A stretch of DNA of 43,657 bases, from sequence record SRR22947727_4407; one strand, written 5' to 3'. The stretch's first letter is position 1; each line of letters begins with the position of its first letter. The notes below the pieces were generated by a model. It did no database searches. It was not told the origin of the DNA and was given only the letters and a program-made list of their open reading frames with translations. The position numbers and the translations under genes were made by a program. This document shows positions 5,515 through 43,655 of this stretch, one piece after another.

Positions 5515-5559
5515 ACGAAGCAACAGGGTACGTTCGATGAACCAACCCTATTGATTCGT
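5515..5559. repeat. 45-bp double-palindrome element, copy 1 (intergenic)
   Basis: A CGAAGCAA CAGGG TACGTTCG A TGAACCAA CCCTA TTGATTCG T. Confidence 0.95.
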
Positions 5560-5638
5560 AAGCCCCGAAATTTCACTGTCCCCATTTTTTACGTCTTTTG
5601 CGCTTTTTTGCGGCTAAAAAAATCCAGCATTTCCTGCC

Positions 5639-6829
5639 ATGTCCATCGACCTCAATTCAAAAATCGCAACTCAAGTCGCTGCGATCCCGCGCTCGGGAAT
5701 TCGTGACTTTTTCGAACTCGTTCAGGGGCGCGACGATGTCATTTCCCTTGGCGTCGGCGAGCCTGATTTCTCCGCCCCGTGGCACATCCGCGAAGCCGCA
5801 ATTTATTCGCTTGAGCAGGGCGAAACAAGCTACACGTCAAACCTCGGGCTGCTTTCTCTTCGGAAATCCATTTCCAAATACGTGACCCGCCAGTTCGATG
5901 TCACCTACGATCCTGAGAAGGAAGTTCTCGTAACCGTCGGCGTTTCCGAAGCCCTCGACCTCGCGTGTCGTGCCCTTTTGAATCCCGGCGACGAAGTGAT
6001 TTATCACGAGCCCTGCTACGTGAGTTACAGCCCGAGCATCATCATGGCCTATGGAAAGGCCGTCGCGATTCAAACCAAAGTTGAAGACGAATTTATTCTC
6101 AAGGCAGAAGACGTGGCTGCTGCAATCACCGACAAAACGCGAGTGATCATGCTGAATTTCCCGACCAACCCAACCGGTGCGGTTGAGCCAATCGAAGAAC
6201 TGGAGAAAATCGCCAAACTCGCCATCGAGCACGATCTAATCGTCATCAGTGACGAGATCTACAGCGAGCTCACCTACACAGGTGACGACGGCATGTCTCG
6301 AATCGATCACATCAGCATCGCCAGCCTGCCCGACATGCGCGAACGGACTATTTTGCTTCACGGATTTTCCAAAGCCTACGCAATGACCGGTTTCCGTCTC
6401 GGCTACGCCTGCGCCCCGAATATCCTGACCGAGGCTATGATGAAAATTCACCAGTATTCCATGCTGTGCGCCCCGATCATGAGCCAAAAAGCGGCCATCG
6501 AAGCGCTCGAAAACGGCGACGCCGAAATGGAAAACATGCGCAAAGCCTACGCTCAGCGGCGGAACCTGTTGCTCAAGCGGTTCAAGGAAATGGGCGTTCC
6601 CTGCTTTTCACCCGGCGGCGCATTTTACGCCTTCCCCGACATCCGAAAATTCGGACTCAGCAGTCACGACTTCGCCATGAAACTTCTCGAGGAAGAAAGC
6701 GTCGCCGTCGTTCCCGGAACGGCCTTCGGTAAAGCCGGCGAAGGATGTGTCCGTGCGTGTTATGCGACCGCGTATGACAAATTGGAAATTGCGCTGGATC
6801 GGATTGAGGCTTTTGTGGGGCGGCTTTGA
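5639..6829 (+). CDS. PLP-dependent aminotransferase class I/II
   Basis: ISLGVGEPDF, NFPTNPTG, SDEIY, GFSKAYAMTGFRLGY (PLP lysine). Confidence 0.96.
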   Translation: MSIDLNSKIATQVAAIPRSGIRDFFELVQGRDDVISLGVGEPDFSAPWHIREAAIYSLEQGETSYTSNLGLLSLRKSISKYVTRQFDVTYDPEKEVLVTVGVSEALDLACRALLNPGDEVIYHEPCYVSYSPSIIMAYGKAVAIQTKVEDEFILKAEDVAAAITDKTRVIMLNFPTNPTGAVEPIEELEKIAKLAIEHDLIVISDEIYSELTYTGDDGMSRIDHISIASLPDMRERTILLHGFSKAYAMTGFRLGYACAPNILTEAMMKIHQYSMLCAPIMSQKAAIEALENGDAEMENMRKAYAQRRNLLLKRFKEMGVPCFSPGGAFYAFPDIRKFGLSSHDFAMKLLEEESVAVVPGTAFGKAGEGCVRACYATAYDKLEIALDRIEAFVGRL

Positions 6830-6837
6830 AGGAATCT

Positions 6838-7779
6838 TTATTCCCCCAAATACCCCGCCGCCTGCAAGAACAAATCAGTATGGGCTGCCACGCTGGTTTC
6901 GATCGGAATGCCATAGCCGCCGCCCATTGTCACGACGAGTGGAATCCCCTGCTCTTCGGCATGGGTGAAAACGAGTTCGTTTCGCGTTCGCAAACCTTCG
7001 CGGGTCATCGCTAAATGTCCCAACCGATCGGTTGCGAGGGAATCAACTCCTGCCTGATACAAAATCAAATCGGGCTCAAACGTTTCGGATTCCTTTTTTA
7101 GACGATTTTCCAACGCGAGCAAAAATTCGGCGTCTTCAGTGCCTTCTTCGAAAATTTCGTCGTGGTCGGATCGCATTTTTCGAAACGGAAAGTTCTTCCC
7201 ACAATGAAATGACACGGTTCTAACGCTTGGATCTTCCTCAAAAATCGACGCTGTTCCGTCACCTTGGTGCACATCCAAATCGAGAATCAGCACGCGCTCG
7301 ACGTCAAAATCCCGCTGAGCCACCCGCGCTGCGATTGCGAGGTCATTGAAAATGCAATAGCCCGATCCAAAGTCAAAATAGGCATGATGGGTTCCGCCGC
7401 CGAGATTTCCGGCTCGCGCCCCCTTCCCTTTCTCGAGAACATGACGAGTCGCGCTGACCGTTCCGTTGGTCAAAATCAGAGTTCGCTCCACAATAACCTC
7501 AATCCAGGGACGCAGGCCGATTCTTCGAATCTTCTCCTCGCTCAGGTTCCCTGACAAAAATTCGTCCACATAATGTGAATCGTGCGCCAATCTCAAATCG
7601 TCGATCGCAATCGGAGTTGGCTGCTTCCAGCAAATCCCGCCGACAAGTTCGAGCCCTTCCAAACCGGCACGAACCAACTGATATCGCTCACGCGGAAATC
7701 GGGCTTCTGGATCGAGGCCGTCGGTGTAAATCGGGTGATACCAAAGATGAAGCATAAAAATCGGGGCTTCGATTGCCAT
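6838..7779 (-). CDS. Histone deacetylase family protein
   Basis: GGTHHA, GYCIFND, DLDVHQGDGT, YQAGVD, GGGY; the true start may be ATG 7755. Confidence 0.95.
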   Translation of the reverse strand: MAIEAPIFMLHLWYHPIYTDGLDPEARFPRERYQLVRAGLEGLELVGGICWKQPTPIAIDDLRLAHDSHYVDEFLSGNLSEEKIRRIGLRPWIEVIVERTLILTNGTVSATRHVLEKGKGARAGNLGGGTHHAYFDFGSGYCIFNDLAIAARVAQRDFDVERVLILDLDVHQGDGTASIFEEDPSVRTVSFHCGKNFPFRKMRSDHDEIFEEGTEDAEFLLALENRLKKESETFEPDLILYQAGVDSLATDRLGHLAMTREGLRTRNELVFTHAEEQGIPLVVTMGGGYGIPIETSVAAHTDLFLQAAGYLGE

Positions 7780-7836
7780 TCGAAGCTACGCCATTATAAT
7801 TACGCTTTCTAAAATTTCCATATTTTCATTATTTTC

Positions 7837-8547
7837 ATGAGCCAAATCAAAAAAGCCTGCATTCTCGCCGCCGGACGCGGAACCCGGATGAAAGATCTCA
7901 CCGACGACATCCCGAAACCGATGATTCCGGTGAAGGGCACGCCGATTCTCGAATCGATTGTCACGGGTCTCGTTGCAAACGGTGTTGAGGAAGTGCTCAT
8001 CGTGGTTGGCTATCAAAAACACGTCATCACCGATCACTTCGGCGACGGATCAAAGTTCGGCTGCAAGGTCGAATACATCGAGCAGGTCGTGCAGGACGGC
8101 ACCGGCAAAGTCGTTGAGCTTGCCACAGATTTCGCGGGCGAAGATTCGTTCATTCTCAGCTACGGCGACATTCTCGTTGCGCCCGAAGCCTACGCTCCAC
8201 TCGTCGCATTGCAGGAAGGCATTGAATCCAAAGTTTCCGTAAAAATCGACGAAGACGTTCGCAAAGGCGGAGCGGTTTTTATCGAAAATGGATTGGTCAC
8301 CGATCTAATCGAAAAACCAGCCGCAAATCAGCCAACCAGCCCCTACTACAACGCAGGAATTTACGCATTTTCACCGCTGATTTTTGAATACACGGCCAAG
8401 CTCGAACTCAGCCCGCGCGGCGAATATGAGCTGACCGACGCGATCGCTGATCAGGTTAAAACTGGTGTGAAAGTCGCAGCTGTAGAGCTTGACGGCGACT
8501 GGGCCGATGTCCGCGATCCCGATGTCTTGGCCGAATTGAACGACTAA
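7837..8547 (+). CDS. Sugar-phosphate nucleotidyltransferase (NTP_transferase family)
   Basis: ILAAGRGTRM...PKPM, YGD, IEKP, SPRGEYELTDA. Confidence 0.93.
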   Translation: MSQIKKACILAAGRGTRMKDLTDDIPKPMIPVKGTPILESIVTGLVANGVEEVLIVVGYQKHVITDHFGDGSKFGCKVEYIEQVVQDGTGKVVELATDFAGEDSFILSYGDILVAPEAYAPLVALQEGIESKVSVKIDEDVRKGGAVFIENGLVTDLIEKPAANQPTSPYYNAGIYAFSPLIFEYTAKLELSPRGEYELTDAIADQVKTGVKVAAVELDGDWADVRDPDVLAELND

Positions 8548-8563
8548 TCGTTTATGTGGCACC

Positions 8564-9058
8564 TCACTCCCGCTCAAGTTTTACATGAGGCTTAACCTTC
8601 GGCTGCTTGTTCTCTTCCCAAACAGATTCGATGATAGTCTTGAATGTTTGGCCTCCGTTAAGCGGCGCAATTTCGATGTGAATTAGATTGCCGTCGGAGC
8701 CGACAACGTCAAAAACATCACCGATCAACATTTCTTTCCGGTAATTGATTTTTAAAACATCGCTCCAGGGAATTGCAGTCTGCTCACCATTGCGCAAATA
8801 GATCACGCGCTCATCGGTGACGATTGCGGCCTCCGTTCCATCAAGAGAAAGCGTCACGTCGCAGTAGGCCCGGATTTACTTCGTTTCGTTTAAGACCTTA
8901 TTTTCTTTCAGATAAACCGTCGCGTATTCCTCCATCTCTATTGGGGTTCGGACGCCCCCTTCGTTTCCAGAAAGCAGAAATGCGAAGCCAATAATAACGG
9001 CAAGACCCGCCAGAAAAGCTAGCACTCCGCAGCCAATTAAAAGATGTTTTCCCTTCAT
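8564..9058 (-). pseudogene. Membrane-anchored hypothetical protein interrupted by an in-frame TAA
   Basis: ORFs 8876-9058 and 8564-8857 share a frame: VLNETK*IRAYCDVTLSLDG, with TAA at 8876-8878. Confidence 0.75.
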
Positions 9059-9140
9059 TGACCGGGGCTAGCCGAAATTGTGGCGGATTTCAAATAGAAC
9101 ACAATCCGTCAACTCGTGTTAAAGTCTGAAAACTCATTCC

Positions 9141-9854
9141 ATGCCCGAACTCAGCCAGTTCCAACGCAATAAAACTGCCGCGCACATCCTTCCGCTGGCG
9201 TTGTTTCTTGGTTTGCAGTTTTTGATTCCACTGATCAAAATCGAGAACCCGGATCTTCCCTGGTGGCGATCTGCCCCGGAGCATTTCATTTACCCACTCC
9301 AAACGATAGTATGCGCTGTCCTGCTCGTCTTCTGGCGACGGCAATTCGATTTTGGAAAGCCAAAACTGATCGGATTCGGCATCGTTTTCGGTATAATCGG
9401 AATCGCAATCTGGCTCGCGCCAACAGCCCTCGGCTGGCAGGATCGTTCAGGGGAAACGGGCGGTTTCGATCCAACCCTATTGGATCATCGAACGAACCCT
9501 ATTGGATCGTGGAGTATTCTCATTCTGAGATTTTTCCGCCTCGTTGTTGTCGTTCCGTTCGTCGAAGAGATTTTCTGGCGGGGATTTTTGATGCGATGGC
9601 TGATCGATTCAAAAAAACGGTGGGACAAAGTCGAGATCGGCACTTTTGGCCAGAAATCTTTCTGGATCACCACGCTGATGATCGGTCTCGCCCACTCGGG
9701 ACCTGACTTCTGGGTCGCGCTTGTTTGGTGAGCCTTGATTGGCTTTGTCACCATTCGCGCCAAAAATCTCTGGGCACCGATCGCCGCTCACGCCGCTGCC
9801 AATCTTGCGCTCGGGATTTACATCATGAAAACCGGGTCGTGGGGGCTGTGGTAA
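9141..9854 (+). pseudogene. CAAX prenyl protease-related (CPBP) membrane protease with an in-frame TGA
   Basis: EEIFWRGFL motif. TGA at 9729-9731 is followed in frame by ALIGFVTIRAKNLWAPIAAHAAANLALGIYIMKTGSWGLW* (conserved HxxxN motif), ending at 9854. Confidence 0.88.
9466..9510. repeat. 45-bp element, copy 2 (inside CPBP gene; cores in direct orientation)
   Basis: T CGATCCAA CCCTA TTGGATCA T CGAACGAA CCCTA TTGGATCG T; encodes FDPTLLDHRTNPIGSW. Confidence 0.93.
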
Positions 9855-9857
9855 ATT

Positions 9858-11036
9858 TCACAAAACCGAACGCACAATTCCCGGTGCAATCGCGCCCAAA
9901 AGCGTCAACAGGGCGATAGCAACAATCACTGAAATCACGAGGACAGCGAGCGCTTCAAAAGCGACCAGCAGCCGAATCGTTGATAAATCAGCCCCGAGAT
10001 TTCGAAGGTTCGAAAACTCACGAATGCGAAGTTTGTTCGACAATAAAAACACCAAAATCGCGATGCCGAAGGTGGCAATTCCGACTGCCACAAGAGCGGC
10101 AATGACGAAATTCCGAATTTGAAAGACGGTTGAGAACAACTCGTCGGTCACCACGGCCGGATCGGCGAGCTGAACCGACTCCGTCGCCGATTCCTGATAG
10201 CGCCCTTTCAAAATTATGCCCGATTTTTGATCTCTCGGGATCACGATCGCCGCAGTAATCGGGAATTCACCAGCGTCTCCATGAAAATGAAAATCACCGA
10301 CATTGTCCGGCGTGATTTCATTGAATTGAACCACCGACGCATTGAGAACGGGGTTGCCCTCCGCATCCATGCTGAGCACCGATTTCTTGTCTTTCGGATC
10401 CACTTCATCATGGCCGTGAGCAAGCCCTTCAATGACCCACGCCGTCTTCACATCGCAGAAAACTGCGCGATCATCGGCATTTCCAGATCGGGTTAGAACA
10501 CCTGTGATCCGCATTTTTAAAGGATAAACCCCAGCCAGATCAAACATCGCTTCAGGTGTGGATATGATCGAATCACCTACGCCAAGACCTAGCTCCGCCG
10601 CGACTTCTGCTCCGAGAACACAATCGCCTAACCTGGCCATAAAATTACCTGAATCCGTTTTCAAATTCCGAAATCGAAAGTAGTCGATCGAAGTCCCCAC
10701 GATCCGAAATCCGTCCGCCGAAAACTTCGCGTAAATCGGGATCGTATTTGCTAAATCCCCGACCTCTTTTGATTTCTGAATCGGGAACGTCGCGATTGCC
10801 GGTTTGGAAAAATAGAGCCCGTTGAAAACCAACTCCAGCGGACTGCCCTGCGCACCCAACATCAGGGGCGTCACTCGTGCCCGCGATCGCAAATGAGATT
10901 CCGCTTCTTTTACAAAAATCGAAATCCCAAACGGCAGAATGATCGAAAGCGATAACGCCGCCACCAACAATACGACTTTGCCCCGCTGTCTTCGGAGGTA
11001 GCGCGTGCCGAGGTGAATGATGCCCGAGGAGTTCAT
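9858..11036 (-). CDS. ABC transporter permease (FtsX/MacB-like)
   Basis: N-terminal TM, large periplasmic domain, C-terminal TMs with RIREFSNLRNLGA; 4-bp overlap with the ATPase gene. Confidence 0.88.
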   Translation of the reverse strand: MNSSGIIHLGTRYLRRQRGKVVLLVAALSLSIILPFGISIFVKEAESHLRSRARVTPLMLGAQGSPLELVFNGLYFSKPAIATFPIQKSKEVGDLANTIPIYAKFSADGFRIVGTSIDYFRFRNLKTDSGNFMARLGDCVLGAEVAAELGLGVGDSIISTPEAMFDLAGVYPLKMRITGVLTRSGNADDRAVFCDVKTAWVIEGLAHGHDEVDPKDKKSVLSMDAEGNPVLNASVVQFNEITPDNVGDFHFHGDAGEFPITAAIVIPRDQKSGIILKGRYQESATESVQLADPAVVTDELFSTVFQIRNFVIAALVAVGIATFGIAILVFLLSNKLRIREFSNLRNLGADLSTIRLLVAFEALAVLVISVIVAIALLTLLGAIAPGIVRSVL

Positions 11037-11686
11037 ATCGCCTCCCCCATGTTAATGACCCGCTCAAAATTCAGCAGCAAATCGTGCTCGTGCGTCACCA
11101 TTAACAACGTGGCCTCACATCGGTTAGCCTCGGATTTCAAAAGATCGACCGCCTTTTGCTGATTTTCAGGATCGAGATTTCCGGTCGGCTCATCGGCTAA
11201 AATGATCTTGGGATTGGTCACCAAGGCCCGGCAAATCGAAACCCGCTGACGTTCGCCCTGCGACATTTCTGCAGGATGACGATCCAGCAAATGATCAATA
11301 CCTGCGGTCGCCGCTAAAGTTTCGCAACGGCCTTGTGCGGCTTCGTCGAGCAGCAATGCAGAGCTCACCCGATAAGGCAGCAGGATATTTTCGCGGGCCG
11401 TCAGGTAATCGAGCAATTCGAATTCCTGAAAAACCAACCCGATGTTTTTGATTCGAAACTGCTGCAATTCGTTTTGCGACATTTCATGAACCGACAGGGT
11501 CTGCACGTTGATCGAACCCTGTTCGATCGGAAGAATCCCCGCAACTAGTCGGAGCAGGGTCGTCTTCCCGCAACCGCTCGGCCCGATCACTGCTGTGTGC
11601 TGGCCCTCTGGAATTTTCAAATCGTCGACCGCCAACGCGAAGGAATCGCGCGGGTAAGAAAATCGGACGTTTTGGAGGTGAATCAT
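11033..11686 (-). CDS. ABC transporter ATP-binding protein (LolD-like)
   Basis: Walker A GPSGCGKT, signature MSQGERQR, Walker B ILADEPTGNLD, H-loop VTH. Confidence 0.96.
   Translation of the reverse strand: MIHLQNVRFSYPRDSFALAVDDLKIPEGQHTAVIGPSGCGKTTLLRLVAGILPIEQGSINVQTLSVHEMSQNELQQFRIKNIGLVFQEFELLDYLTARENILLPYRVSSALLLDEAAQGRCETLAATAGIDHLLDRHPAEMSQGERQRVSICRALVTNPKIILADEPTGNLDPENQQKAVDLLKSEANRCEATLLMVTHEHDLLLNFERVINMGEAI
11486..11530. repeat. 45-bp element, copy 3 (inside ABC ATPase gene)
   Basis: A TGAACCGA CAGGG TCTGCACG T TGATCGAA CCCTG TTCGATCG G with the TTTC left flank seen in other copies; equals codons 53-67, PIEQGSINVQTLSVH. Confidence 0.8.
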
Positions 11687-13239: not shown

Positions 13240-13330
13240 CGCCACACGTATGCAACCAATTCACCCGAGATTCACACGAAAAAACGGATTTGATTGCGTG
13301 ATGCGTCATTTTCTGTCCTAGTTGCCAAAG

Positions 13331-14278
13331 ATGTTTTCGAAACGGCAACTCGTTTTCCTCATCGCGATTGTCATCATCGGCAGTGCGATTGGTTTCAATA
13401 CAGCTGCGCAAAACAAACGAATTCGTCGCCTCGCAGCAACCGAAGCAAAACTCGCCTATTATTCAAGCGCTCTGGAAATCAACCGCCGCTACGTTGACGA
13501 TCTCGCCGCCAAGTTCCGAACGACTTCGGAACATCGTAAAGAACTGCAGGACTCAATCGAGAAACGGAACGAACTTGAATCTGCAATTCAGACGCTAAGA
13601 AAGGAGCCGGAGCCCGATTCAAAGGTGAAATGGGCGACGGGAGCGACCGTTCTTGTCGAGGAGTTCATTGTCCCCCGGGAGACTGCAGAGAAACTGTTAG
13701 GAAAATTTGATCGGCGCGATTTGGACCAGGAGATGCGCGAAGAACTTCTGGCAAGACCCAATCATGTCCGCTTTCAACACCGGTTCGAAACGGTTGTTTT
13801 ACCGGCCTTGACCGCCAAAAACCAAATCCGCCGCTCTTTTGAGTTCGGCCAGCAAGGGGAATTCACGACCTCCTTCTCAGACACGACTGTCGGTGAGCTT
13901 TCACCCATTCAGCATGCCCGGAACACCAAAGGTAGCTACGCCAGCGGCCTGGAAGAGCTCATCGTTCACACTGCACTTGAACGCAACGAAGTGACCAGCC
14001 AGATAAGTTTCACACTCCGCGAGTCTGCTGGATTTACTCTGGGGACCTGGTCGATTTACCGTATTGCCGAGCCCTTCCAAAATCCAAAATGGGTCTATCG
14101 AATTCAGCTCGACACTCAGCTTCCGGTTGCACCGAATCGGTTTCAATATATCGGTTCAAGCCCATTCCAAGTGAGAACAGGAGATCGTTCCAGTTCAGGC
14201 CAAAACCAGGGGACGATGCTGGTATTCACCAAGGTGGATTTTCACAATGACGGTAAAGCTGAACCCGCTGTCGAATGA
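13331..14278 (+). CDS. Membrane-anchored protein with coiled coil and possible secretin-like domain (1 of 3)
   Basis: N-terminal TM, coiled coil, then TVLVEEFIVPRETAEKLL...EMREELL and a beta-rich C-terminus; 4-bp overlap with the next gene. Confidence 0.6.
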   Translation: MFSKRQLVFLIAIVIIGSAIGFNTAAQNKRIRRLAATEAKLAYYSSALEINRRYVDDLAAKFRTTSEHRKELQDSIEKRNELESAIQTLRKEPEPDSKVKWATGATVLVEEFIVPRETAEKLLGKFDRRDLDQEMREELLARPNHVRFQHRFETVVLPALTAKNQIRRSFEFGQQGEFTTSFSDTTVGELSPIQHARNTKGSYASGLEELIVHTALERNEVTSQISFTLRESAGFTLGTWSIYRIAEPFQNPKWVYRIQLDTQLPVAPNRFQYIGSSPFQVRTGDRSSSGQNQGTMLVFTKVDFHNDGKAEPAVE

Positions 14279-15132
14279 ACAATCAGAATTTACAATTCAG
14301 TTTCATCGTTCTCATCGCTACTTTTCTGACAGGCTGCGAACCGGGATTTTACGAACAAAAATTGAATTCAAAGATTGATAATCACCTCGACAAAATTCGG
14401 AATCTGAACGAATCAATCGCAAATGCCGAATCCGAAATCAAGAGCCATCAACCGCTCGCTTTCGAAGCTCAACCTGAAGTAAGATCAAATTCCCGAACTT
14501 TTTTTCGGGTCGATGAACGGATGGACTTCTTACTGCTTCAAAAGCGATGTGAAGTGGATAAAAAATGGCTGAAATCTCACAACGACGTTACCGGCGAGGA
14601 TTTGCTTGCCGCAATAGAGTTCGATGAAAAAATCAAACTTGAGACTCTAGCCTGCACCCGATTTCCCGCCGATCATTTCCAATTTTCTGAATCCGTTTCA
14701 AATTCGAATCGCCAATTTTTTGTCAAGCCTTCGACCGGAGAAGATGGAAATCGTTCAATCCAGCAATTCCGTGACGTGTTCGGCTACCCTCTCGATCAAC
14801 TCATCTTAACTCAATCATTTGTCGTGGTGCCGGACGGAAATACATTACGAATTAACGCCGCGTTTGATCCCGACCAACAAGTCGTTCAATTGGAAATCTC
14901 TCACAACCATTTCTCGAATCCGGCCCTCGAAAAAATCCTTTTCCGTGATCGAACGAACTCACCTTCCCCTGAATTTTTCGAAATGGCAATCCCGGCCCCG
15001 AAAGCCTCAACCCATCAAACGCACACTGTCCGGGTGCCAATCTCTCAGTGGCTGATATCATCCACTCTTCCCTTATCTAACAACCCCAATCGGGTTACCC
15101 TTCATTTTCTCAAGGCAATCGAAGTGAACTGA
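14275..15132 (+). CDS. Lipoprotein with possible secretin-like domain (2 of 3)
   Basis: Lipobox FLTGC, coiled coil and a beta-rich C-terminus with the same layout as its neighbours. Confidence 0.6.
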   Translation: MNNQNLQFSFIVLIATFLTGCEPGFYEQKLNSKIDNHLDKIRNLNESIANAESEIKSHQPLAFEAQPEVRSNSRTFFRVDERMDFLLLQKRCEVDKKWLKSHNDVTGEDLLAAIEFDEKIKLETLACTRFPADHFQFSESVSNSNRQFFVKPSTGEDGNRSIQQFRDVFGYPLDQLILTQSFVVVPDGNTLRINAAFDPDQQVVQLEISHNHFSNPALEKILFRDRTNSPSPEFFEMAIPAPKASTHQTHTVRVPISQWLISSTLPLSNNPNRVTLHFLKAIEVN

Positions 15133-15990
15133 ATGAATCTATTTTTTCAAAATTCTCCCTCCATCCTTTTCTTAATCGGCTGCGCGATCTTCTCAGTTAG
15201 CTGTAGCGAGAACGGTGATTCAGCAGCGATGAAGGAAACGCTTTTGCAAACCGAAGTGGAGCTCCTTTCCAAGCGACTTGAGTCATTAGATCAAGAGATG
15301 GACCTCCAGGTTTTACAGTTGGAGAAAGACCAACGATTGCTCATTCGGGGATCCTCGATGAGCATTCGAGATCTCGGCGAAGCCAACTTAACAGCAAAAA
15401 TTGAGCGCTTTCTTCTTTCGCCAGAAGACTTTTCCACGCTGCTTGAAAACGGAAACGTCAGCGAACTTCACAACGGGATTCAGAAACTCGTTTCGGAAAA
15501 CAAGGCGACTACCAAACCAATTTTCATTGCCAGTCTTTCGACCGTCAGCAGAAAAGGTGAACCTCCAAAATTTACCGTTTCGGATCAGAATAATCTCAAC
15601 GTGCCCATTAATTTTGAACCCGTTTTGAGGAATGAAATAGAAAAGCCGGACTCAAAGCTGGCGCCCAACGAATGGATGAAAGAGGACCTCGGGACGTCCT
15701 TCACTGCTGATTTACTAGCGCGGGAAGACGACCGGTTTTTACTCGACTTGGAATTCAAAGACACCACTCGACTGAAGAACGAGCGCTATCCATTTCCCAA
15801 AATATTCGTCGAAAAAGATCCCGGTCACCTCGATATGCCGGTTTTTCATCAGGGCGAAATTGAGACCACAATCACTGCCGCTGTTGGTGTCGCAGAATTT
15901 ATCGGGACAACGATCATCCCTGGATTCGAAGTCGAAAATCCAGAGCAATTTCAGGCAGTGTTTATCACAATTTTGGGTGACACGAAGTAA
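15133..15990 (+). CDS. Lipoprotein with possible secretin-like domain (3 of 3)
   Basis: Lipobox SVSC; VPINFEP, EDLGTSFTAD, MPVFHQGEIETTIT...G...IG, resembling the secretin C-terminal pattern. Confidence 0.65.
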   Translation: MNLFFQNSPSILFLIGCAIFSVSCSENGDSAAMKETLLQTEVELLSKRLESLDQEMDLQVLQLEKDQRLLIRGSSMSIRDLGEANLTAKIERFLLSPEDFSTLLENGNVSELHNGIQKLVSENKATTKPIFIASLSTVSRKGEPPKFTVSDQNNLNVPINFEPVLRNEIEKPDSKLAPNEWMKEDLGTSFTADLLAREDDRFLLDLEFKDTTRLKNERYPFPKIFVEKDPGHLDMPVFHQGEIETTITAAVGVAEFIGTTIIPGFEVENPEQFQAVFITILGDTK

Positions 15991-16026
15991 CCGGGTTGGC
16001 TCGCCAAACACACCCTGTTCGTTCGA
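15982..16026. repeat. 45-bp element, copy 4 (contains the stop codon of 15133-15990; convergent gene ends)
   Basis: A CGAAGTAA CCGGG TTGGCTCG C CAAACACA CCCTG TTCGTTCG A. Confidence 0.85.
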
Positions 16027-16031: not shown

Positions 16032-18656
16032 TCACTCTTCGTGGGTATCGATTTCTCCGGTGAACTGCCCGGGATTTTTTTCCCGAAGTATTTTCAATGC
16101 CTCCGCCTTTGAAACCGGAAGCGCCTCGCTCTCGTCGAGCCCCGGAGTTCGCGACAATTCAAGAGCGCAATGATTCAGGTAGAGCTGCTCGGGCGTGGGA
16201 GGCGTTTCAAACTCTTCAAACGACGACCAGGTCATTGTACCTCCTTGAAGTCTGTAGGCGGTTTCGAACGGGTCGCTATCGTTAAATCGATAAGTGAATT
16301 TGAATAGATAGAGCGGCACTTTTTCCTCAAGTAGCGGCCAAAAAATCTCGCGCGTATCAAACGGCTCAATCGTCTCCGGCGCGCCACCAAGTCCATTTGG
16401 ATGACTAAGCCATTCCATCATGGCCGCCTTCGCCGCGAAGTCGGGTTCGAGCGCCGCCGCGGGGATGTCGGCTTCGTGATCCAATTCGATCAAATAGTTT
16501 TTTGCGGTCTCCGACCAATAGGGTTTTAAGGTGGCATCCTGGAGAACTTTGAGCCCTCGCTTTGCCTCCGCGCTTTTCACTTCTGCCCACGCCGTTTCCA
16601 GTTGAATGTCATATCCAGGATGGGCGTAGCCAAGTTCGAAGGCACTATTACTACTTTTGTGTTTGATGAACCCGAGTGCGAGCGCAGCTGAAAACGAGTG
16701 ATCCATTTCATCAGGGCCCACAGGTTGGAGCCATTTTTTCAGCTGCTCAATCCCCTGTTCTGAGTCAAAGAAATGGAGGTTGTCCGGCTCGACTTCAAAG
16801 AATAAATCATTGTTCCATTCGAGCGATCGTGCTCCCATCATTCCAGTTGGTGGACTCTTTCGAAGCAGGATATCAACGGGTTCGAAGGTGGGAAGTTCGG
16901 GATCTAATGAAGAAAAGACCTCACTCCAAATCGAAGATTCCGCACCGAAATTTGAGGCAATCAATTCCGCAACCAATTCACCAGATTCCTCAGTCCCTAC
17001 ATTCATCAGGGTATCAAGTGTCCACACAGTGAAGTTTACAGTCTCTTCCGACTGCTGCGATTTTCGTGTAGCCACACTGCGAACATAATCATGGAAAAGA
17101 GGCACTATCTCTGTTTCAAACTGCCGAATAATCGATTCTTCCTCGATGTTGTAACCGAGATCGACCAGGTCAGAAATTCTCTGAGTTGCGGCAACCGAAT
17201 CAACTTTGGCCAACCGCTTCACGGCTGCCTTTAGCTGCGCGATATCTGCTGCCGTTGTCGGGGCGGCATCCACACTAAGGTTACTCAAGACGCCTTTCAG
17301 ATCTTCCGGACTTCCACTTCGCGCCAGCTATTCGGCAACTTCTGAAGCTAACGAAATGTCGTTCAATACCTTCCAGGCAGACTCTATTTCGGCCGAGGTG
17401 AAACTAATCTTGCAGGACTCTCCGGTATCTTCGAGAATTTTTTTCTGCAATCAATCCAGTCGTCGATGCGAGAATGTTGAAGTGGTCACCTTCCGCAACT
17501 GAGAAGGCGGTAAACGGTGTTCCCGTTGCGTTGGCCCGAGTCTGCATCGTATCAGCATCGTATCAGCATCGTAGTAATAATCTTCTTCACCCTCGAAGTA
17601 GAACGTGGGACTGGTGATTAATTTGGTATATCGAATCGGGCTTCTCAATTCGGTATCACGCGGACTTTTCTTATGATCATACGGAGTATTTCCGTAGCCG
17701 TAGCCCTCCCCCTCTTCGCCGTCAGTCATCAGCGCACCCATATCGGGGCGACCGCCAAAAGAAAATGCTGCACGAAAATCCGTTTCGGAACCGGATACCG
17801 CAGCTAGCAACGTGATCGTTCCACCGATGCTATGTCCGCCGATATAGACTCGCTCAGGGTCCACGTAGGGCAACGATTTAACATGCTCGATCGCAGCGAT
17901 GAAGTCATCGACTTCGCCATAGAAAAGCTCGAACTGACCCAGATTTTCGTTTTCCCCGCGAAACGATGGACACATCAAAACGATTCCCGCATCTCGAAAT
18001 GCCTGAGCCGATTGATCATTCAGACGATTTTGTTCACCCCATAAAAAATCGCCAATTCCCCCGAATCCACCTTTCGCCCAGACCATGGCGGGATGCCGTT
18101 TCCCATCACCGGGGTCCGGAGTGAGGTAGGCCGACATTTCACCGGCGGGCGAAGTATATTTGATCAAATCGAAATTCTCTTCGTCCGGCGGAGCAGGCGC
18201 CTCGCCATCAGATTCAAAATCAACCTCATCGGGATCCAGCCATTCTGTGTCGTGCCCTTTGCGATCTTCCAATAGCGCGACAGGTGCTTGACCCACCATC
18301 TGCGCGGCATTCATTAAATCCGAAAACGATTTGAATGCGAGCCCGATCAATCCGATCACGAGCACTCCAACAATCGCCAACGAAATCCATAGCCATTTTA
18401 GGGAACCCTTCTTGGGCGCACTCACAGTGGCCGTCTGTTGCCGGAGCGGCGGCGGAGTTGTGCGAGCAATTGTCGTTGGTCCTGCCTTAGGCAACGGAGG
18501 CGGGGCTGTGGGCGCCCCCAGGAGACCCAATACAGTTAACGCTTCGCTCTGCCCCTCGGGGATCACAAATTGATTGGGATCGATCTGTCCGCTTGAAACC
18601 CGTTCCCGGATTTCTGCAATTGTCAGGGCGGTGCCGTCGGGGAAAAAATAATTCAT
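16032..18656 (-). pseudogene. Disrupted multidomain gene: GYF-like N-terminus, TM, alpha/beta-hydrolase (S9 peptidase-like), helical-repeat C-terminal domain
   Basis: KGGFGG and GHSIGG nucleophile motifs. An 11-bp duplication at 17544-17573 shifts GDHFNIL (catalytic His motif) out of frame. The restored frame meets TAG at 17328-17330 and then continues in frame into ORF 16032-17288. Confidence 0.85.
17544..17573 (+). repeat. 11-bp tandem repeat, GCATCGTATCA x2.7
   Basis: gcatcgtatca gcatcgtatca gcatcgta, read directly. Confidence 0.95.
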
Positions 18657-18673: not shown

Positions 18674-18718
18674 ACGATCCAACAGGGTCGATTCATCGAT
18701 CAAATACTATTGGATCGT
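18674..18718. repeat. 45-bp element, copy 5 (intergenic)
   Basis: A CGATCCAA CAGGG TCGATTCA T CGATCAAA TACTA TTGGATCG T. Confidence 0.92.
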
Positions 18719-23807: not shown

Positions 23808-24740
23808 ATGATCGATACCCTCCCAACAAACGGCCCTTTCGATCTCGCCGCGACGCTCAATTCAGGACAAGTTTTTCACTGGAATGAGCATTCCCACAAT
23901 TCTCATTCGGGATTTCTTGGGACAATCGGTGATGCCCCCACCTTTCTCGCTCAAATTGGTGATAATCAAATTTTCACGATCCAACAGGGTCTGTTCGACG
24001 AATCAACTGGGTTGGATCGAAACGCTGAAAATCGCCCTCACGATCCAATAGGGTCCATTCATCGAACGAACCCTGTTGCTTCGTATTTAGCTCTCGATCA
24101 GGCCGATGCAGATATCCGCGCAACTTTCCCTCAGAACGATCCGTTTTTTGATTCCGCACTCAATTATTGTCCGGGACTTCGAATTTTGCATCAACCGATG
24201 TGGGAGTGTCTCGCCACTTTCATCACGTCGTCATTAAAACAAGTGGCTCACATTCGGGACATTTCTCTGACCCTTCGACGCAACCACGGGACGCGGCACG
24301 AATTTTTGGGTGAGGAGCTTTTTGCCTATCCCACTCCTGCAGCACTCGCTGAAGCGGGCGAGGCCAAATTGCGCGCCTGCGCCCTCGGATATCGTGCTAA
24401 ATCGCTCCACTTAACCGCTGCGGCGATTGCCGATGGCTCCATCGATTTGGCGGAACTCGACAGCATCGAAGATCACGCTGAGGCCGTGAAATTTCTCTGC
24501 CAGTTTCACGGCGTTGGCGAGAAAATTGCAAATTGCGCGCTCCTGTTTGGAGCGAATCGATTGGGCGCATTTCCGATCGATGTATGGATCGAACGCGTCC
24601 TCCGGCAGGGATATCGGAAGCGGGTGAAGGGCGCGAAATTACAGCGATGGGCGGAAGGTTATTTCGGCCCCTACGCTGGATACGCACAGCAGTTTTTGTT
24701 TCACTACGGCCGAGTTGGCGGCTTAGGTAAAAACTCATAA
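23808..24740 (+). CDS. 8-oxoguanine DNA glycosylase (OGG1-like, HhH-GPD)
   Basis: TLNSGQVFHW, GLRILHQ, LGYRAK, HhH GVGEKIANC, FPIDVW, YAGYAQQFLF; carries two 45-bp elements in frame. Confidence 0.93.
   Translation: MIDTLPTNGPFDLAATLNSGQVFHWNEHSHNSHSGFLGTIGDAPTFLAQIGDNQIFTIQQGLFDESTGLDRNAENRPHDPIGSIHRTNPVASYLALDQADADIRATFPQNDPFFDSALNYCPGLRILHQPMWECLATFITSSLKQVAHIRDISLTLRRNHGTRHEFLGEELFAYPTPAALAEAGEAKLRACALGYRAKSLHLTAAAIADGSIDLAELDSIEDHAEAVKFLCQFHGVGEKIANCALLFGANRLGAFPIDVWIERVLRQGYRKRVKGAKLQRWAEGYFGPYAGYAQQFLFHYGRVGGLGKNS
23976..24020. repeat. 45-bp element, copy 6 (inside glycosylase gene; cores direct)
   Basis: A CGATCCAA CAGGG TCTGTTCG A CGAATCAA CTGGG TTGGATCG A; equals codons 57-71, TIQQGLFDESTGLDR. 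Confidence 0.93.
24040..24084. repeat. 45-bp element, copy 7 (inside glycosylase gene)
   Basis: A CGATCCAA TAGGG TCCATTCA T CGAACGAA CCCTG TTGCTTCG T; 19 bp after copy 6. Confidence 0.95.
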
Positions 24741-27586: not shown

Positions 27587-27631
27587 TCGAAACCACAGGG
27601 TCTGTTCGACAAATCAACCCTGTTCGTTCGT
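27587..27631. repeat. 45-bp element, copy 8 (just downstream of the dnaB stop)
   Basis: T CGAAACCA CAGGG TCTGTTCG A CAAATCAA CCCTG TTCGTTCG T, then GAAAA. Confidence 0.93.
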
Positions 27632-31426: not shown

Positions 31427-31471
31427 ACGAATCAACAGGGTCTGATCGACAAATCAACCCTATTTGATCGT
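31427..31471. repeat. 45-bp element, copy 9 (divergent intergenic region)
   Basis: A CGAATCAA CAGGG TCTGATCG A CAAATCAA CCCTA TTTGATCG T, then GAAA. Confidence 0.93.
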
Positions 31472-35834: not shown

Positions 35835-38800
35835 CTATTTCCCCAGATTTGCTTCTGGAGTCACTCGCAATTCTTCGGCGATCATCTTTGAGAAAGGCGC
35901 AAGATGGATCAAGATTGAATATCGTTGGTCTGGTGTTAACCACTGGCTTTGTTTCGAATATTGCTGCTCCACGGCTTCAACTCGTTGCTCCCGATTTGGT
36001 GTAGTAGGGGATAAATCCGGCGCATCGGGCAAGCCTGCAAAAATAGCCTCTACCACCAATTCGCGCAATGTGTTGGTTTCGTAGCACTCAGTCAATTGCT
36101 CGTGAAATGTCGCCGTGTATTCTTCCGTGAGTCCTCGAGTGAGTTGCCACGGCTTTCGGTAAAGGATGGGTTTAGCGATCTTGAAATCTCCCGCTTCGAT
36201 CAAATCGCGACACTCTTTAATTTCCATGATCCCTTCATGCAAATTTTTCGAATGTTTGAACATGGCCCCAAACTTCGATTGGCTATCGGATAATTTTGCT
36301 ATCTAAAACAGGTCAACAAAGTGCTGACGATTGTGGGCCACTCGCCCAACTCGGAGCCGGGCCGGACCATGCGCAGTCTAAAATAACGCCGTATTCCCGA
36401 TATATGATTGAATGAACTCATTTGCGATCGGTTTGAAAGAGTCTGGATTTCCTTCAACTTTCTCCCGAACCAAACTCTCCAGTTCTATTGTCACCTCCGG
36501 GCGGAAATTCGCCTCATGCTCGTGATCAATCTCAAGCTGGATTGTCGCCGAAACCAACCACTCAATGAATTCATCAGGCAGCGAAATTCGGTCACGTTGC
36601 TGAAGGAGAGTCGCAATCGCAGTCATCTTGTAAGCCGGAAACAGCTCTGGGCTTTCGATCAGTTTTTGATAGAACCCTGCAATTTTTTCAGGAATCTCAC
36701 GGTCCGCTCCGGAGATGAAAATCGTTGTCGCAATTCCGATTTCTTCAGCAACTGACGGATTTAATTTAGCCCGCCCAGAACTACGAATCCACTTATTAAC
36801 CTCAGTTATAGTCGCGGTATCACAGTGCGAAAAGACTTCGTTCAACAAAACAATCGCCGCTCCAAATTCGAAGGCTTCTTCATTTATATTAAATAGGAAT
36901 TCCTTCAAGTGATCGATGTGAATTTCCGCGAGCGAATCCACTGCGAGCAGTTTTTTGAGCAGCCGATCATTGATGTTCGGGTATCCCCGAGGAACCTCTT
37001 TCTCTCGCCAACTTGAGCAGGCAAGAATCAAACCAAGCGCGGAATCCGGCGGAAGATCACTCAGCAAGGAACCAACCAGCAAATCATCAAACGGAAAGTC
37101 CTGAGTATCTGATACTCTCCACTGTGAATAAGAATTGGACTCAACTGAATTTTCGACGTCCTCGGGGCGTAGTAGAATTTGATGCAAAACCTCTGCCAAT
37201 GGGATGTCCAACTTCCTTACCGCGGTTGAGTTTACCGCTTTTGAGTTTTGATATTTAGCGAACGAAATACCACCAAGCTCCCGCTCTAGCCATTCAACCA
37301 ATCGATAATCCAAGAATTCGATTTCGAAATCACGATTAAAACGAGGCATGACATCTGTGAGGAAAAATGCCAAATCGAACCGCTCCTTGCATGACCATGT
37401 TTTGATCTCAGGTCATTCATTTAAAATGAGCGCCTCCAATTCAATCTCAGGAGATTCAAAAAATGCTGCTCCTGAAATTTTTGGCCCTAACAAATGAGGC
37501 TTCTCAGCCTTCATTTTTGCAACCCACTGCTCAAACTCACGGCGGTGCAGGCCAGAGGCGCGATGAGCCGCCCCATAAATCCAACTCGCCACAGTCCGCC
37601 CCATGGGTCCACACCAGCGTGGACAATATCGACCACAATAAATTCCACGATTAAAAACCGGATCAAATTTCGAGTATGAAAAAGTAGAGCCATCCAAAAA
37701 ATCTTCGATGCAGTCGACGTATTCCAATTCTTCCGGTGATGTCACAGATTCGCCGATCGCCTCAAAAGTCGAGCTTTCATAAGGCAGGTAATCGAACTCT
37801 TTCACTGCCTGATGATTCAGTAAAATGCTTTTTGAGAACTCCGCAGGGTCATGATGAAAACCTGTTTCAGGGATTCTACGAATATCCGGATACTGGTCGT
37901 GCTCATCAAAAAGCCACACGAAATAGGGCTGCTTGGCTCGCTCCACTCCAAAGGCAGCCTCAGAAGTTCGAACCAACAACGATTCAATTCGATCACGCTG
38001 GTCCGTTCTTACATAAGCCGCCGCCAAAGCCGAAAGCGCTCGGTAACAGACTTCTTTCTCGGACTTCCCCTCTGCTCCCGCAAATCGTTGAAGCAGCGCG
38101 TCTTCCAGTTCTACTGGGCAGCCCCGATGTTCCCACGTCTCGATTTTTTCAGCCATGCTCCGTTCGACTTTAGAAAATTCTCCAGAAAATCAGCCTCATC
38201 ACAAAAATAGAGTTCACCGAGCATTTTTAATTTTTGGGAAGCTCGGTCCGGCTCTCTTTTGGCCAAAACCAAATCATCGATCCATTCTCGTCGATATTCC
38301 TCGTAAGCACGTCTCGCTAAATACTCCAGCGGCCCGGACCAATCATCACGGTATGTCCCCCATTGCCTGTAAGAATCGTATTCACGCTCATTCAGCAGCT
38401 CAACCTCCTGCACGGTCGATGCAATTTCGATAGAGAGCCGATCGAGTTCCCGCCGCGAAAAGAAACCACGCTCCTCTGCTTCTCGAAGCCGGTGAAATGC
38501 ATCAACCGAAAACTCCGGATCGCGCGCCAGTTTTCGAGCCGCATTGATATATAGCGCCTTTCGCCACGGTTCGATGCGATGATAGGTCACCCACTCGACT
38601 GGATTATCAAATCGCGGCTTCCAGGAATTCGTGAGAGAACCAAATTCCATCCCCCGGGTGCTGCCCGGCGCCCCGGCAATTCGATCCAGAAACTGAATCT
38701 TCCGATTCTCAGGAAAAATCCACTCATCAACCGGCTTTCTGATTATCTTTTCAGCTGCCGCAAAAAATTGATCCGCACTCTTTTCTTGGTAGTGCCGCGT

Positions 38801-38938
38801 AAGATCAAGCCTCACCACTTCATATTCTGTACCCGAAGGATGAAAACAGAGCCAAATTCGCGCCCAGTTATAAAAGACCGCAGACATCATCAAAACAGCG
38901 GCACTCCAAGAGATAAAATGGCGTTTCCGACGGCTCAT
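35835..38938 (-). pseudogene. Large decayed hypothetical gene
   Basis: ORFs 37413-38156, 36378-37373 and 35835-36263 share one frame, separated by TGA 37413, TAG 36378 and TAG 36303. ORF 38111-38938 (N-terminal TM) is joined by a probable frameshift or is a separate overlapping gene. Confidence 0.7.
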
Positions 38939-39025
38939 TGGAATTAGGACGAATCAATACCGTGGAAATTAGATGGTTGTTTAATGGGAATCACTCAGGA
39001 TAGAATTACACCACGATCACTGTTC

Positions 39026-39070
39026 ACGAACCAACCCTGTCCATTCATCGAACGCACCCTGTTCGTTCGT
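39026..39070. repeat. 45-bp element, copy 10 (divergent intergenic region; cores direct)
   Basis: A CGAACCAA CCCTG TCCATTCA T CGAACGCA CCCTG TTCGTTCG T, then GAAAA. Confidence 0.92.
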
Positions 39071-39283: not shown

Positions 39284-39319
39284 TTGACGAATGCCATTAA
39301 ATCCCGATAAAAATGGCAT
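39284..39319 (+). promoter_or_regulatory. Sigma70-like promoter overlapped by a perfect 8-bp inverted repeat
   Basis: -35 TTGACG at 39284, weak -10 near 39308, and ATGCCATT-N13-AATGGCAT at 39291-39319; AT-rich upstream tract. Confidence 0.55.
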
Positions 39320-39349
39320 ACTTATTCGCTAAAACGGTGAATTCATTGA

Positions 39350-39577: not shown

Positions 39578-39619
39578 CCTTATTCATTCATTCCTATAAC
39601 CTCCTGACCCCACACTGCT

Positions 39620-39850
39620 ATGTTCCCAGACGACTCAAATCCCGCTCAAACGGCTGAAAACCTCCGCGTTCTCGACGCTGGAGCAGACGATGCGAAGTAC
39701 GCATTCGAAAATGACGCTGAATTCCGCAACACATTCGAAGAAGAACTCCGGACGCTTGCTGAGGAAATCGTGCAAAGCCACCCCAGTTTGACTCAGCTTT
39801 TGCTGTCGATGAGCCAGCCGGAAATGAACCCGGTTCACGGCAAGAACTAA
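39620..39850 (+). CDS. Small acidic hypothetical protein
   Basis: 76 aa, D/E-rich, 42 bp downstream of the RHH-like gene. Confidence 0.6.
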   Translation: MFPDDSNPAQTAENLRVLDAGADDAKYAFENDAEFRNTFEEELRTLAEEIVQSHPSLTQLLLSMSQPEMNPVHGKN

Positions 39851-40070
39851 CCCACTCTCACCACCCTAAAAGGTGGTGCAGAATTCTGGACTCGATTCAG
39901 CAATTTCCTGCAAAGGTTGCAGGCTCCTCTTCTCAATCAACACGGCTTATTACAAGCCAAGCTGGGGGAGGAATCGGATTCGGGGTAAATGGACTCTACA
40001 AACTTCCATTTGGGCGCGAAAGTGTGCAGAAATCCATTGAATTTACGATATTTCCAGTAAATCATAATAA

Positions 40071-41617: not shown

Positions 41618-41664
41618 TTTCGGGCCTTGTGTCCTCCCGATTCATTCGCTTACGATGCCGTTCC

Positions 41665-42888: not shown

Positions 42889-42977
42889 CGACCGTTCAAC
42901 GATCCTCGGAAATCTCATCAGTCAGGGTTTACGTGAGGAAAAGGTCGCGTAATTTTGAGTAGAATTTTCTTCCTGAA

Positions 42978-43538
42978 ATGAATCTGAAAGACCTAAAAGC
43001 TCACCTAGCCGCATCACCCGAAAAACTCGTTCAATTGATCCTTCCCGGAGGATCAACAGTCCCGCAGCATTTCCACGTGACCGAGGTGGGGCAAGTTCAA
43101 AAGGACTTCATCGATTGCGGCGGCGAGGTTCGAAACTCCACCGTCTGCTTGATTCAAGCTTGGGTGGCGAACGACCTCGATCATCGAATCGAAACTGACA
43201 AGCTTCTCAAAATCCTCGAACTCGCTGACAAAGTCATTCCATCCGATAACATTCCCGTCGAATTCGAATACCAAGAGCGCGTCATTTCTCAATATCCGCT
43301 CAAAGCATCAGGTATCACCGACGACGGCGAAGCAGTCACCCTGACATTGGGCCTCAAATTCACCGATTGTCTTTCAAAAGACAAATGCGGTATCCCAGAA
43401 GATTATGTCGGCGAGCGTCAATCTGGAGAAGCAGCTACCGCACCTTGTTGCGGTCCGGGCGAAACGTGTGGGCCAGATTCAGGAGAAACCCGTGATTTTC
43501 AGGTGGCGCCAACTTCGTCTCCGATAAAATTCGGATAA
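42978..43538 (+). CDS. DUF6428-like protein with Cys-rich tail
   Basis: VPQHFHVTEVG, FIDCGG, IQAWVANDLDHR, TDCLSKDKCG, CCGPGETC. Confidence 0.75.
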   Translation: MNLKDLKAHLAASPEKLVQLILPGGSTVPQHFHVTEVGQVQKDFIDCGGEVRNSTVCLIQAWVANDLDHRIETDKLLKILELADKVIPSDNIPVEFEYQERVISQYPLKASGITDDGEAVTLTLGLKFTDCLSKDKCGIPEDYVGERQSGEAATAPCCGPGETCGPDSGETRDFQVAPTSSPIKFG

Positions 43539-43556
43539 TCACCAGAAGCCAATTTT

Positions 43557-43601
43557 ACGAAGCAATAGGGTAGGTTCAACGAATCATCCCTGTCTGTTCG
43601 A
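43557..43601. repeat. 45-bp element, copy 11
   Basis: A CGAAGCAA TAGGG TAGGTTCA A CGAATCAT CCCTG TCTGTTCG A. Confidence 0.92.
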
Positions 43602-43610
43602 AAACGGATT

Positions 43611-43655
43611 TCGATCCAATAGGGTACGTTCGATGAACCTACCCTGTTGCTTCGT
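43611..43655. repeat. 45-bp element, copy 12 (9 bp after copy 11)
   Basis: T CGATCCAA TAGGG TACGTTCG A TGAACCTA CCCTG TTGCTTCG T. Confidence 0.95.

Follow-up and report, generated by a model that had tools for sequence, protein, structure and literature searches.

The stretch of DNA analyzed here, 43,657 nucleotides of sequence record SRR22947727_4407 (hereafter the window), carries 12 copies of a paired motif in which two 21-bp quasi-palindromes follow each other at a repeat period of exactly 22 bp. The motif is a real genome-wide DNA signal, apparently not described before and with strong signs of selection; it occurs in large numbers in three related genera that belong to one Verrucomicrobiales family, a branch of uncultured Verrucomicrobia. 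It is probably a double-stranded DNA site for a protein of some kind, and such a protein may read the paired 22-base motif over long distances, perhaps for recognition of the cell's own DNA. We rank first, with a probability of roughly 0.4, a self-mark for uptake or recombination that would spread by mutation and recombination in the manner of uptake sequences or of the cyanobacterial highly iterated palindrome HIP1. A nucleoid or loop-anchor protein, which explains the pairing and phasing of the motif better and its losses worse, is ranked close behind.

Structure of the motif

A first-pass annotation had placed 12 copies of a 45-bp element in co-directional, convergent, and divergent gaps of the window and inside its genes. 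The copies are present at the coordinates claimed, align without indels, and have the placements described. They are listed here without strand.

5515..5559: paired site, inverted cores; co-directional gap between an Lrp/AsnC gene and a class I/II aminotransferase gene
9466..9510: paired site, both cores leftward; in frame within a CAAX-protease-like gene
11486..11530: paired site, inverted cores; in frame within an ABC ATPase gene, no indel
15982..16026: paired site; convergent gap, overlapping the stop codon of the open reading frame (ORF) that ends at 15990
18674..18718: paired site, second core degenerate; co-directional gap
23976..24020: paired site, both cores rightward; in frame within an 8-oxoguanine glycosylase gene, as part of a ~25-codon insertion
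24040..24084: second paired site of the same glycosylase insertion, 64 bp (about six turns) from site 23976
27587..27631: paired site; co-directional gap just downstream of dnaB
31427..31471: paired site; divergent gap between an NfeD-like gene and an M14 peptidase gene
39026..39070: paired site, both cores leftward; divergent gap
43557..43601: paired site downstream of a DUF6428 gene
43611..43655: paired site, 54 bp (about five turns) after site 43557

A matrix built from the 24 halves scores above 15 bits at exactly those 24 positions of the window and at no others, and order-3 Markov shuffles of the window give 0.2 such matches. Each half consists of an arm, a near-invariant ACAGGGT core, and an inverted arm, and carries ~26-30 bits of information in g1, one of the genera (labeled g) surveyed below. 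The annotated 45-bp consensus matches only two of the 12 copies exactly, the other ten having 1-5 mismatches. Its TTTC and GAAA flanks, described as frequent, were overstated (TTTC on the left in 3/12, GAAA on the right in 3/12). The element was also said to be usually a palindrome as a whole; nine copies have inverted cores and three have direct cores, both leftward in copies 9466 and 39026 and both rightward in copy 23976. Therefore, what repeats is the 22-bp half, and the 45-mer is not a constant unit.

Arrays of three to four halves with the identical 22-bp period are found elsewhere in G001, the genome nearest to the window. The numbers of inverted, direct, and everted exact core pairs at 22 bp are 345:203:10 in G001, 599:53:4 in G003, 477:202:15 in G148, and 66:29:10 in G116; in G082 they are 160:320:99, approximately as expected for independent orientation. 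Direct pairs show no strand excess (106 vs 97 in G001), and an exact-pattern search of five genomes found no three full elements in tandem. In the G001 sample, cores less than 70 bp apart are otherwise separated by 21 (once), 32, 42-44, 54, and 63-64 bp, all near multiples of the helical turn, so that neighboring cores stand in helical phase. A double-stranded site of a symmetric multimer would account for the fixed geometry, the freely oriented cores, the helical phasing, the degeneracy at particular positions, and the avoidance of perfect pairing. The annotation had suggested a multimeric protein as well, and the suggestion draws further support from the synonymous conservation, in-place origin, and even spacing described below.

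Copy number, taxonomic range, and dialects

Half-site matches with at most one mismatch number 1,598 in G001, vs one for a reversed-pattern control. Within 512 kb of this genome, 95 pairs and 18 further halves form 88 clusters, with none in an equal-length Markov control; scaled up, the total is ~1,000 clusters. The family survey comprised 134 genomes and counted exact inverted pairs. These number 320-599 in genus g1 (3/3 genomes), 64-477 in g18 (6/6), 0-160 in g2 (present in 55/58), 0-7 in g7 (present in 3/4), and 0-1 in the remaining 26 family genera. Outside the family, 147 genomes of the same order yielded two single matches, and 300 further genomes of the phylum, searched with a longer skeleton, yielded none. 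An exact scan of named genomes, which may overlap with the G-numbered ones, gave at least 60 loci, all listed ones titled Verrucomicrobiales. In a ComEC tree of 26 rows (one gene and a short search), g1 joins g2 (support 99), and a larger group (support 93) unites them with g18 and g19, the latter nearly free of sites. Judged by eye, the clusters that contain the few g7, g19, and G068 copies seem to have been acquired horizontally.

The part invariant across genera is AYAGGGT-N15-ACCCTRT, or ACAGGGT-N15-ACCCTGT in the main form, whereas the arms vary by species: CGAWCCA in g1, GATCAGA in G020, GATTGTA in G088, and GACCCA in G148 and much of g2. Thus, the CGAW arms are the dialect of the window's genus, and the presence of GATC in the arms depends on the dialect.

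Conservation and origin of sites in place

Sites persist at orthologous places between genomes that are 70-80% identical. A match occurs in the same gene or gap at 7/7 comparable window loci in G003 (one a half-site, one displaced by ~150 bp), at 5/8 in G002 (two degenerate), and at 1/3 in G020. Sites 9466 and 11486 are matched in position in G002 and G003, and site 31427 in G002. The two glycosylase pairs also occur in G003, with a half-site remnant in G002, and the gap of site 27587 holds a pair in G003 and G020 and none in G002. For site 18674, a pair lies at the end of the orthologous gene in G003, with none in G002. The gap of site 5515 contains a degenerate pair in G002, a half-site match in G003, and nothing in G020, and near site 39026 a G003 pair lies ~150 bp away, again with none in G002. 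Genes and gene order run intact through orthologous sites.

Sites inside genes allow their origin to be followed at the protein level. The genes concerned in the window are as follows.

9141..9731, plus strand: CAAX-protease-like gene with a site (Pfam Rce1-like; homologues)
11033..11686, minus strand: ABC transporter ATPase gene, site without length change (Pfam ABC_tran; gapless alignment to solved homologues)
23808..24740, plus strand: 8-oxoguanine DNA glycosylase gene, two sites in an in-frame insertion (Pfam OGG_N; alignment)

The ABC ATPase with site 11486 aligns without gaps both to solved homologues and to its equal-length, site-free orthologue in G020. In three orthologues from g1, codons that specify a shared residue are identical in 31/38 comparisons inside this site and in 143/315 outside it, the pairs not being independent. 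Site 9466 overlies the codons of GFDPT, a motif conserved throughout the homologue family, with no insertion. In a wider survey of in-gene sites (28 rows, several of them duplicates or shadow frames), the net indel is at most three residues in 15 rows, intermediate in seven, and at least eight residues in six, four of which are the glycosylase gene. In g2, the copies within argG and pyrD occupy short insertions when compared with solved homologues.

Spacing along the chromosome

The 88 clusters in 512 kb of G001 have a mean gap of 5.9 kb and a coefficient of variation (CV) of 0.54. Nulls that keep the gap class, with or without length weighting, give a CV of 0.92-0.93, and a value as low as the observed one came up in 0 of 3,000 draws. 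Both tails are depleted: six gaps are shorter than 2 kb vs 21 expected, and the longest is 14.2 kb (P 0.0004). The same is seen in G148, a genome of another genus with 65% G+C, where 50 clusters in 400 kb have a mean gap of 8.1 kb, a CV of 0.59 vs 0.91 under a simpler lattice null, and a longest gap of 19.4 kb (P 0.003). Even spacing at both tails implies that one cluster per several kilobases is what counts.

Clusters lie mostly outside gene bodies (78/88 in G001) and show no bias with respect to transcription direction: with genes called by a hexamer model, sites occupy 45/239 co-directional, 16/85 convergent, and 15/84 divergent gaps. In G116, a single contig of 5.26 Mb, the matches listed fall on both replichores and beside both skew switches (skew sampled at 20 points), and no origin or terminus bias is seen among them.

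Possible function

The proposed mechanism is as follows. Each 21-bp half, with its arm, ACAGGGT core, and inverted arm, would bind one protein unit, and two or more units would bind cooperatively, two helical turns apart. Selection would act on one cluster per several kilobases, a second cluster nearby adding little and a long site-free stretch being disfavored. New sites would arise where they stand, through substitution and recombination, preferably in gaps but also in genes that tolerate them. Self DNA would be recognized during uptake or recombination, marked fragments would be favored, and the mark would spread by drive, as uptake sequences do. Because drive explains the range from 0 to ~1,000 copies among relatives, and because uptake sequences share with the motif an origin in place, dialects, an even spread, few sites in genes, and occasional use as terminators, a self-mark for uptake or recombination is ranked first.

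Several observations weigh against this ranking. Known uptake sequences are 9-12 bp long, non-palindromic, and act singly (PMC2817400 and PMC2397512), whereas the pairs and helical phasing of the motif would be more in keeping with a multimer inside the cell. Only 10/88 clusters (11%) lie in genes, vs 34-65% for the DNA uptake sequences (DUS) of Neisseriaceae and the uptake signal sequences (USS) of Pasteurellaceae. DUS are absent from recently acquired genes, according to the accessible text of PMC2397512, whereas a mobile element in these genomes keeps the site at 22/24 loci (see below). The competence gene comEC is found in 115/134 family genomes and is equally common in site-free genera, and a search for the ComP family, uninformative because all 14 controls were silent too, gave 0/95 genomes.

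Searches by the distribution of comEC, ComP, integron integrase, mobile-element proteins, and Y1 transposases found no cognate protein. The comEC frame, a point in favor of the uptake reading, is intact in G001, G002, G020, G148, and G116, and no clade-specific neighbor of it stands out among clusters seen in at least three genomes. Integron integrase was tried as the cognate and rejected, since it occurs in 48/134 genomes including site-free genera. The conserved sites of low-copy g2 genomes were examined for a lead to the cognate gene, and the genes that they flank or occupy are ordinary ones. Two g2 genomes share an orthologous site immediately beyond the open frame of comEC, at its 3' end (L195:619 and L196:3158). 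In genus g23, with small genomes, comEC is present in 1/13 genomes vs 114/121 in the rest of the family.

Another scenario, possible and with only slightly less in its favor than the self-mark, is chromosome organization: a sequence-specific nucleoid protein, a dimer of dimers that bridges DNA or loads clamps, would bind every 6-8 kb and set loop or domain size. The pairing of cores at 22 bp, with neighbors only at ~32, 42-44, 54, and 63-64 bp, fits this scenario, as do the spacing that is even at both tails and the sites listed all round the 5.26-Mb contig on both replichores. Re-paired halves are also more complementary in their inner arms than the real pairs, which is what disfavored cruciforms would lead one to expect, and a similar idea has been raised for the quasi-periodicity of HIP1 (PMC13756078, available portion). 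Against it, the 95%-complete g2 genomes G113, G081, and G114 retain 0, 1, and 3 exact inverted pairs, respectively, and a needed structural role is hard to square with such near-loss. In addition, no origin or terminus bias is seen among the sites listed, unlike for matS, NBS, SBS, and parS sites, and the searches above found no protein for this role either. Taking the self-mark and the loop anchor together in their strong form, we see slightly worse than an even chance of an independent third system of DNA self-recognition or of sequence-specific loop anchors tiling the whole chromosome, with a multimer reading paired 22-bp units every 6-8 kb, the sequences of enzymes rewritten by the sites, and mobile elements obliged to carry the mark.

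Alternative explanations

RNA hairpins, acting as terminators or stabilizers, are suggested by the inverted form, which folds at about -17 to -20 kcal/mol, and some copies probably double as hairpins. Conserved g2 copies after rpsR and rpsI have paired inner arms and T runs and look like terminators. Pooled g2 copies show an excess of inner-arm pairing (z -3.8 for 58 copies that are not independent), driven partly by these orthologous copies and by related mobile-element copies. The hairpin is refuted as a general function, and what is left is a secondary role of some copies as terminators. The stem cannot be formed by direct pairs, which nevertheless make up 203/558 exact pairs in G001 and 320/579 in G082; convergent gaps are not preferred, and a T-rich run follows only 3/120 ends in G001. 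Pairing within genomes is at or below chance. In 141 inverted pairs, complementarity within a half is as expected, and across the pair three inner positions fall below the expected level; in four within-genome sets the inner arms are more mismatched than re-paired halves (z 3.1, 5.1, 3.2, and 3.0). Variation had been called non-compensatory in the annotation, and a covariation check agrees, showing no compensatory pairing within genomes; an Rfam search of the window returned no match to the motif and only two tRNAs at gathering score. A hairpin as the primary function thus has next to no probability in our estimate. A non-autonomous mobile repeat fares somewhat better while still being improbable: an element like repetitive extragenic palindromes (REP), their hairpin-forming doublets (REPIN), or miniature inverted-repeat transposable elements (MITE) would be moved by an unrecognized enzyme, with target immunity or purging producing the even spacing. 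Copy number is indeed high and lineage-variable, 78/88 clusters avoid gene bodies, inverted pairs dominate in g1, the glycosylase copies lie in a ~25-codon insertion and the argG and pyrD copies in short inserts, and Y1 genes are present in all four genomes searched. This reading is already largely refuted by the copies themselves. All 84 sampled G001 copies and all 36 inverted G148 copies are distinct, which leaves no master copy, and the nearest-neighbor distance equals that of arm-shuffled sets. There is no excess of 2-9 bp target duplications at six end offsets in 94 copies, and several in-gene sites lack an indel relative to equal-length site-free orthologues. REPINs are randomly spaced beyond 200 bp, according to the accessible text of PMC3116915. 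The only Y1 match in G001 has a stop codon and no site within 3.3 kb, and 18/25 Y1 loci of the four genomes have no match at up to three mismatches, in a search that could miss divergent Y1 genes; one locus, L012, is flanked on both sides by a site pair, at distances of 1.3 kb and 0.3 kb. In the strain contigs of three DNA runs, no empty allele across seven copies appears among the matches listed, and in contigs of four runs the joints at elements fit cross-matches to other motif copies; such contigs cannot show rare inversions or RNA ends. An Rfam match, target duplication, compensatory pairing, and a shared site-flanked Y1 transposase, which the annotation held to speak against a binding site, were all looked for, and none was found.

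A site for site-specific recombination, of attachment (att), dif, or integron type, or a domesticated tyrosine recombinase site, is more doubtful than the mobile repeat. Each half parses as a 7-bp arm, a 7-bp asymmetric core, and a 7-bp arm, comparable to lambda att cores; the arms are unlinked, and those of g2 and g18 often read RYYYAAC and GTTRRRY, as integron boxes do. A site lies within ~100 bp downstream of 5/9 xerC/xerD-like loci (L344, L346, L347, L348, and L349), an adjacency that is weak because xerD-like loci share ancestry and ~19% of G001 gaps carry a site anyway. In G148, a three-half array lies between two divergent intI genes (L373:3079-3145), and mobile-element homology ends at the core in several cargo-bearing copies. 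Against recombination, the AAC-to-GTT spacing is 3 bp with a span of 39 bp, whereas integron sites have a spacing of 5-6 bp; gene order is intact through orthologous sites, the far end of one fully seen cargo has no site, and an IntI query that matches 48/134 genomes, site-free genera included, misses the site-rich G020 and G082. The recombinase version of the annotation's reading found no support. The verrucomicrobial LexA box, TGTTC-N4-GAACA, was also considered as the identity of the motif and rejected, the motif having a spacing of 3 vs N4. One of the intI genes beside the L373 array has an insert of ~28 residues, and short tandem repeats follow. The integron integrases at L354 and L356 carry long extensions at the N terminus, and degenerate tandem repeats of ~22-24 bp lie ahead of them. 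At least eight similar tyrosine-recombinase genes of 324-328 codons in G148 (L353, L357, L359, L368, and L370-L372) suggest an expanded mobile element.

Mobile elements carrying the site

A cluster resembling an integrative and conjugative element (ICE), with DUF3150, DUF1257, and AAA ATPase genes, was found in 27/134 family genomes (loci L235-L240 and L254-L283). With 30 of 43 matches taken as loci, a site stands just after the DUF3150 gene at 22/24 loci from g2 or g18 hosts and at 0/6 from other genera; read by eye, 20 of these sites are inverted and two everted. Viral contigs gave no match with the strict pattern and one with the skeleton, and this phage copy (L191:4678-4718) lies inside an ORF among virion-like genes. 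The distribution could be explained if the motif were a self-mark against a scanning nuclease or translocase, Chi-like or defensive, with bound sites protecting or redirecting DNA processing, so that resident mobile elements would also keep one. The truncation of long gaps and the in-gene phage copy agree with this, as does the host-dependent presence of the site in the DUF3150 ICE. However, Chi and KOPS (FtsK-orienting polar sequences) are short, polar, single motifs, whereas direct pairs here lack strand excess; many ICE copies form good hairpins, and they may descend from one gain and so share one ancestor. No such enzyme was identified either, and we regard this explanation as quite unlikely.

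The DUF3150 ICE was rejected as a source of the motif, its query finding 0/3 in the g1 genomes. In several ICE copies, the DNA after the site is replaced by cargo of acetyltransferase or nucleotidyltransferase type, and no site duplication was seen at the cargo junctions. In G065, a site-containing direct repeat of 230 bp, 96% identical (L234:699-928 and 2718-2946), flanks a 2-kb segment with a DUF6036 gene.

Comparison with known repeats

On the features tested, the motif fails membership of REP/REPIN, MITE, attC, DUS/USS, and HIP1, and it works most like DUS or HIP1. It resembles DUS and USS in being clade-restricted, with hundreds to thousands of copies and dialects round an invariant core, and in being spread more evenly than random, built in place in genes, and, in some dyad pairs, usable as a terminator. 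The parts of PMC2817400, PMC2397512, and PMC3630211 available to us indeed describe uptake sequences as originating by mutation and recombination, evenly spread, under-represented in genes, forming dialects round a fixed core, and doubling as terminators when in dyad pairs. The motif differs in its unrelated sequence, its length (43 bp with ~26 bits per half vs 9-12 bp), its pairing at a fixed 22 bp with helically phased neighbors, and its density (one per 6-8 kb vs about one per kb). Its ACAGGGT core differs from the three cores tabulated in the available part of PMC2817400 and lacks the neisserial context round CTG given in that of PMC3630211.

HIP1 is the nearest phenomenon. According to the accessible portion of PMC13756078, it is likewise genome-wide, conserved in coding and non-coding DNA, and quasi-periodic, and roles in chromosome structure and in DNA uptake have both been proposed for it, so that the same two hypotheses are open there. 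Unlike the present motif, which is bipartite, mostly intergenic, and built on an asymmetric invariant core, HIP1 is an 8-bp perfect palindrome read by methylases. REP, REPIN, and bacterial interspersed mosaic elements are also short, palindromic, dispersed, high in copy number, usually paired, intergenic, and sometimes in frame (PMC3733652, PMC3116915, and PMC6006769, as far as their available text goes). The motif lacks their GTAG, CGTC, or CnGA foot on a covarying hairpin, their master sequence, their bias to transcribed 3' gaps, and a flanked REP-associated tyrosine transposase, and its spacing is even rather than random and its origin indel-free.

The matS, NBS, SBS, and parS sites, bound by MatP, Noc, SlmA, and ParB, respectively, are dispersed palindromic double-stranded sites for dimeric or tetrameric chromosome proteins; they occur in tens of copies that are confined to or excluded from a chromosome region. 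In contrast, the motif is bipartite and reaches ~1,000 copies, and the sites listed for G116 lie all round the chromosome. With attC, attI, and lambda-type att cores it shares two simple sites, each arm-core-arm, and RYYYAAC/GTTRRRY-like arms in g2 and g18. In attC, R and L boxes lie 5-6 bp apart, with extrahelical bases and cassette arrays beside intI, whereas the motif is too short and has a 3-bp spacing, its spacers are fully paired, no cassette arrays were seen, structural covariation is absent, and the sites lie inside housekeeping genes.

No published description of the motif was found in a search of the openly accessible literature. To our knowledge, DNA marks that are genome-wide, under selection, and evolving in place have rarely been described in bacteria; the examples (DUS, USS, HIP1, Chi, and KOPS, the last two short and polar) are all of at most 12 bp. 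The motif is a long, bipartite site whose helical geometry is fixed and whose even spacing can be measured, which makes it a precise bait for finding its cognate protein. If an uptake role is true, sequence-specific transformation would have a third origin, in a further phylum, and these marine bacteria could perhaps be made transformable with the aid of the site. If a nucleoid role is true, the motif would be a chromosome-wide, sequence-encoded loop anchor. The range from 0 to ~1,000 copies among relatives provides a natural experiment on the rise and decay of such marks.

Other features of the window

The window is ordinary chromosome, with dnaB, rplI, two tRNAs, and transporters. All its sampled words are common to G001, in which positions 3800-43657 are represented on two contigs. 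The strain contigs of runs X11 and X16 show dense differences at 9054-9349 and several indels at 17438-18441; both divergent stretches end 120-230 bp short of a site and are possibly recombined tracts, in two cases only. The CAAX-protease-like ORF encodes 196 amino acids, vs 232-237 in its three closest homologues, and seems to stop early. A Na+/H+ exchanger with a TrkA domain is split between ORFs 27034-27450 and 25875-26984. Runs of ORFs without a Pfam match occupy 13322-15990 and 35835-38938 and include two adjacent ORFs of 285 amino acids.

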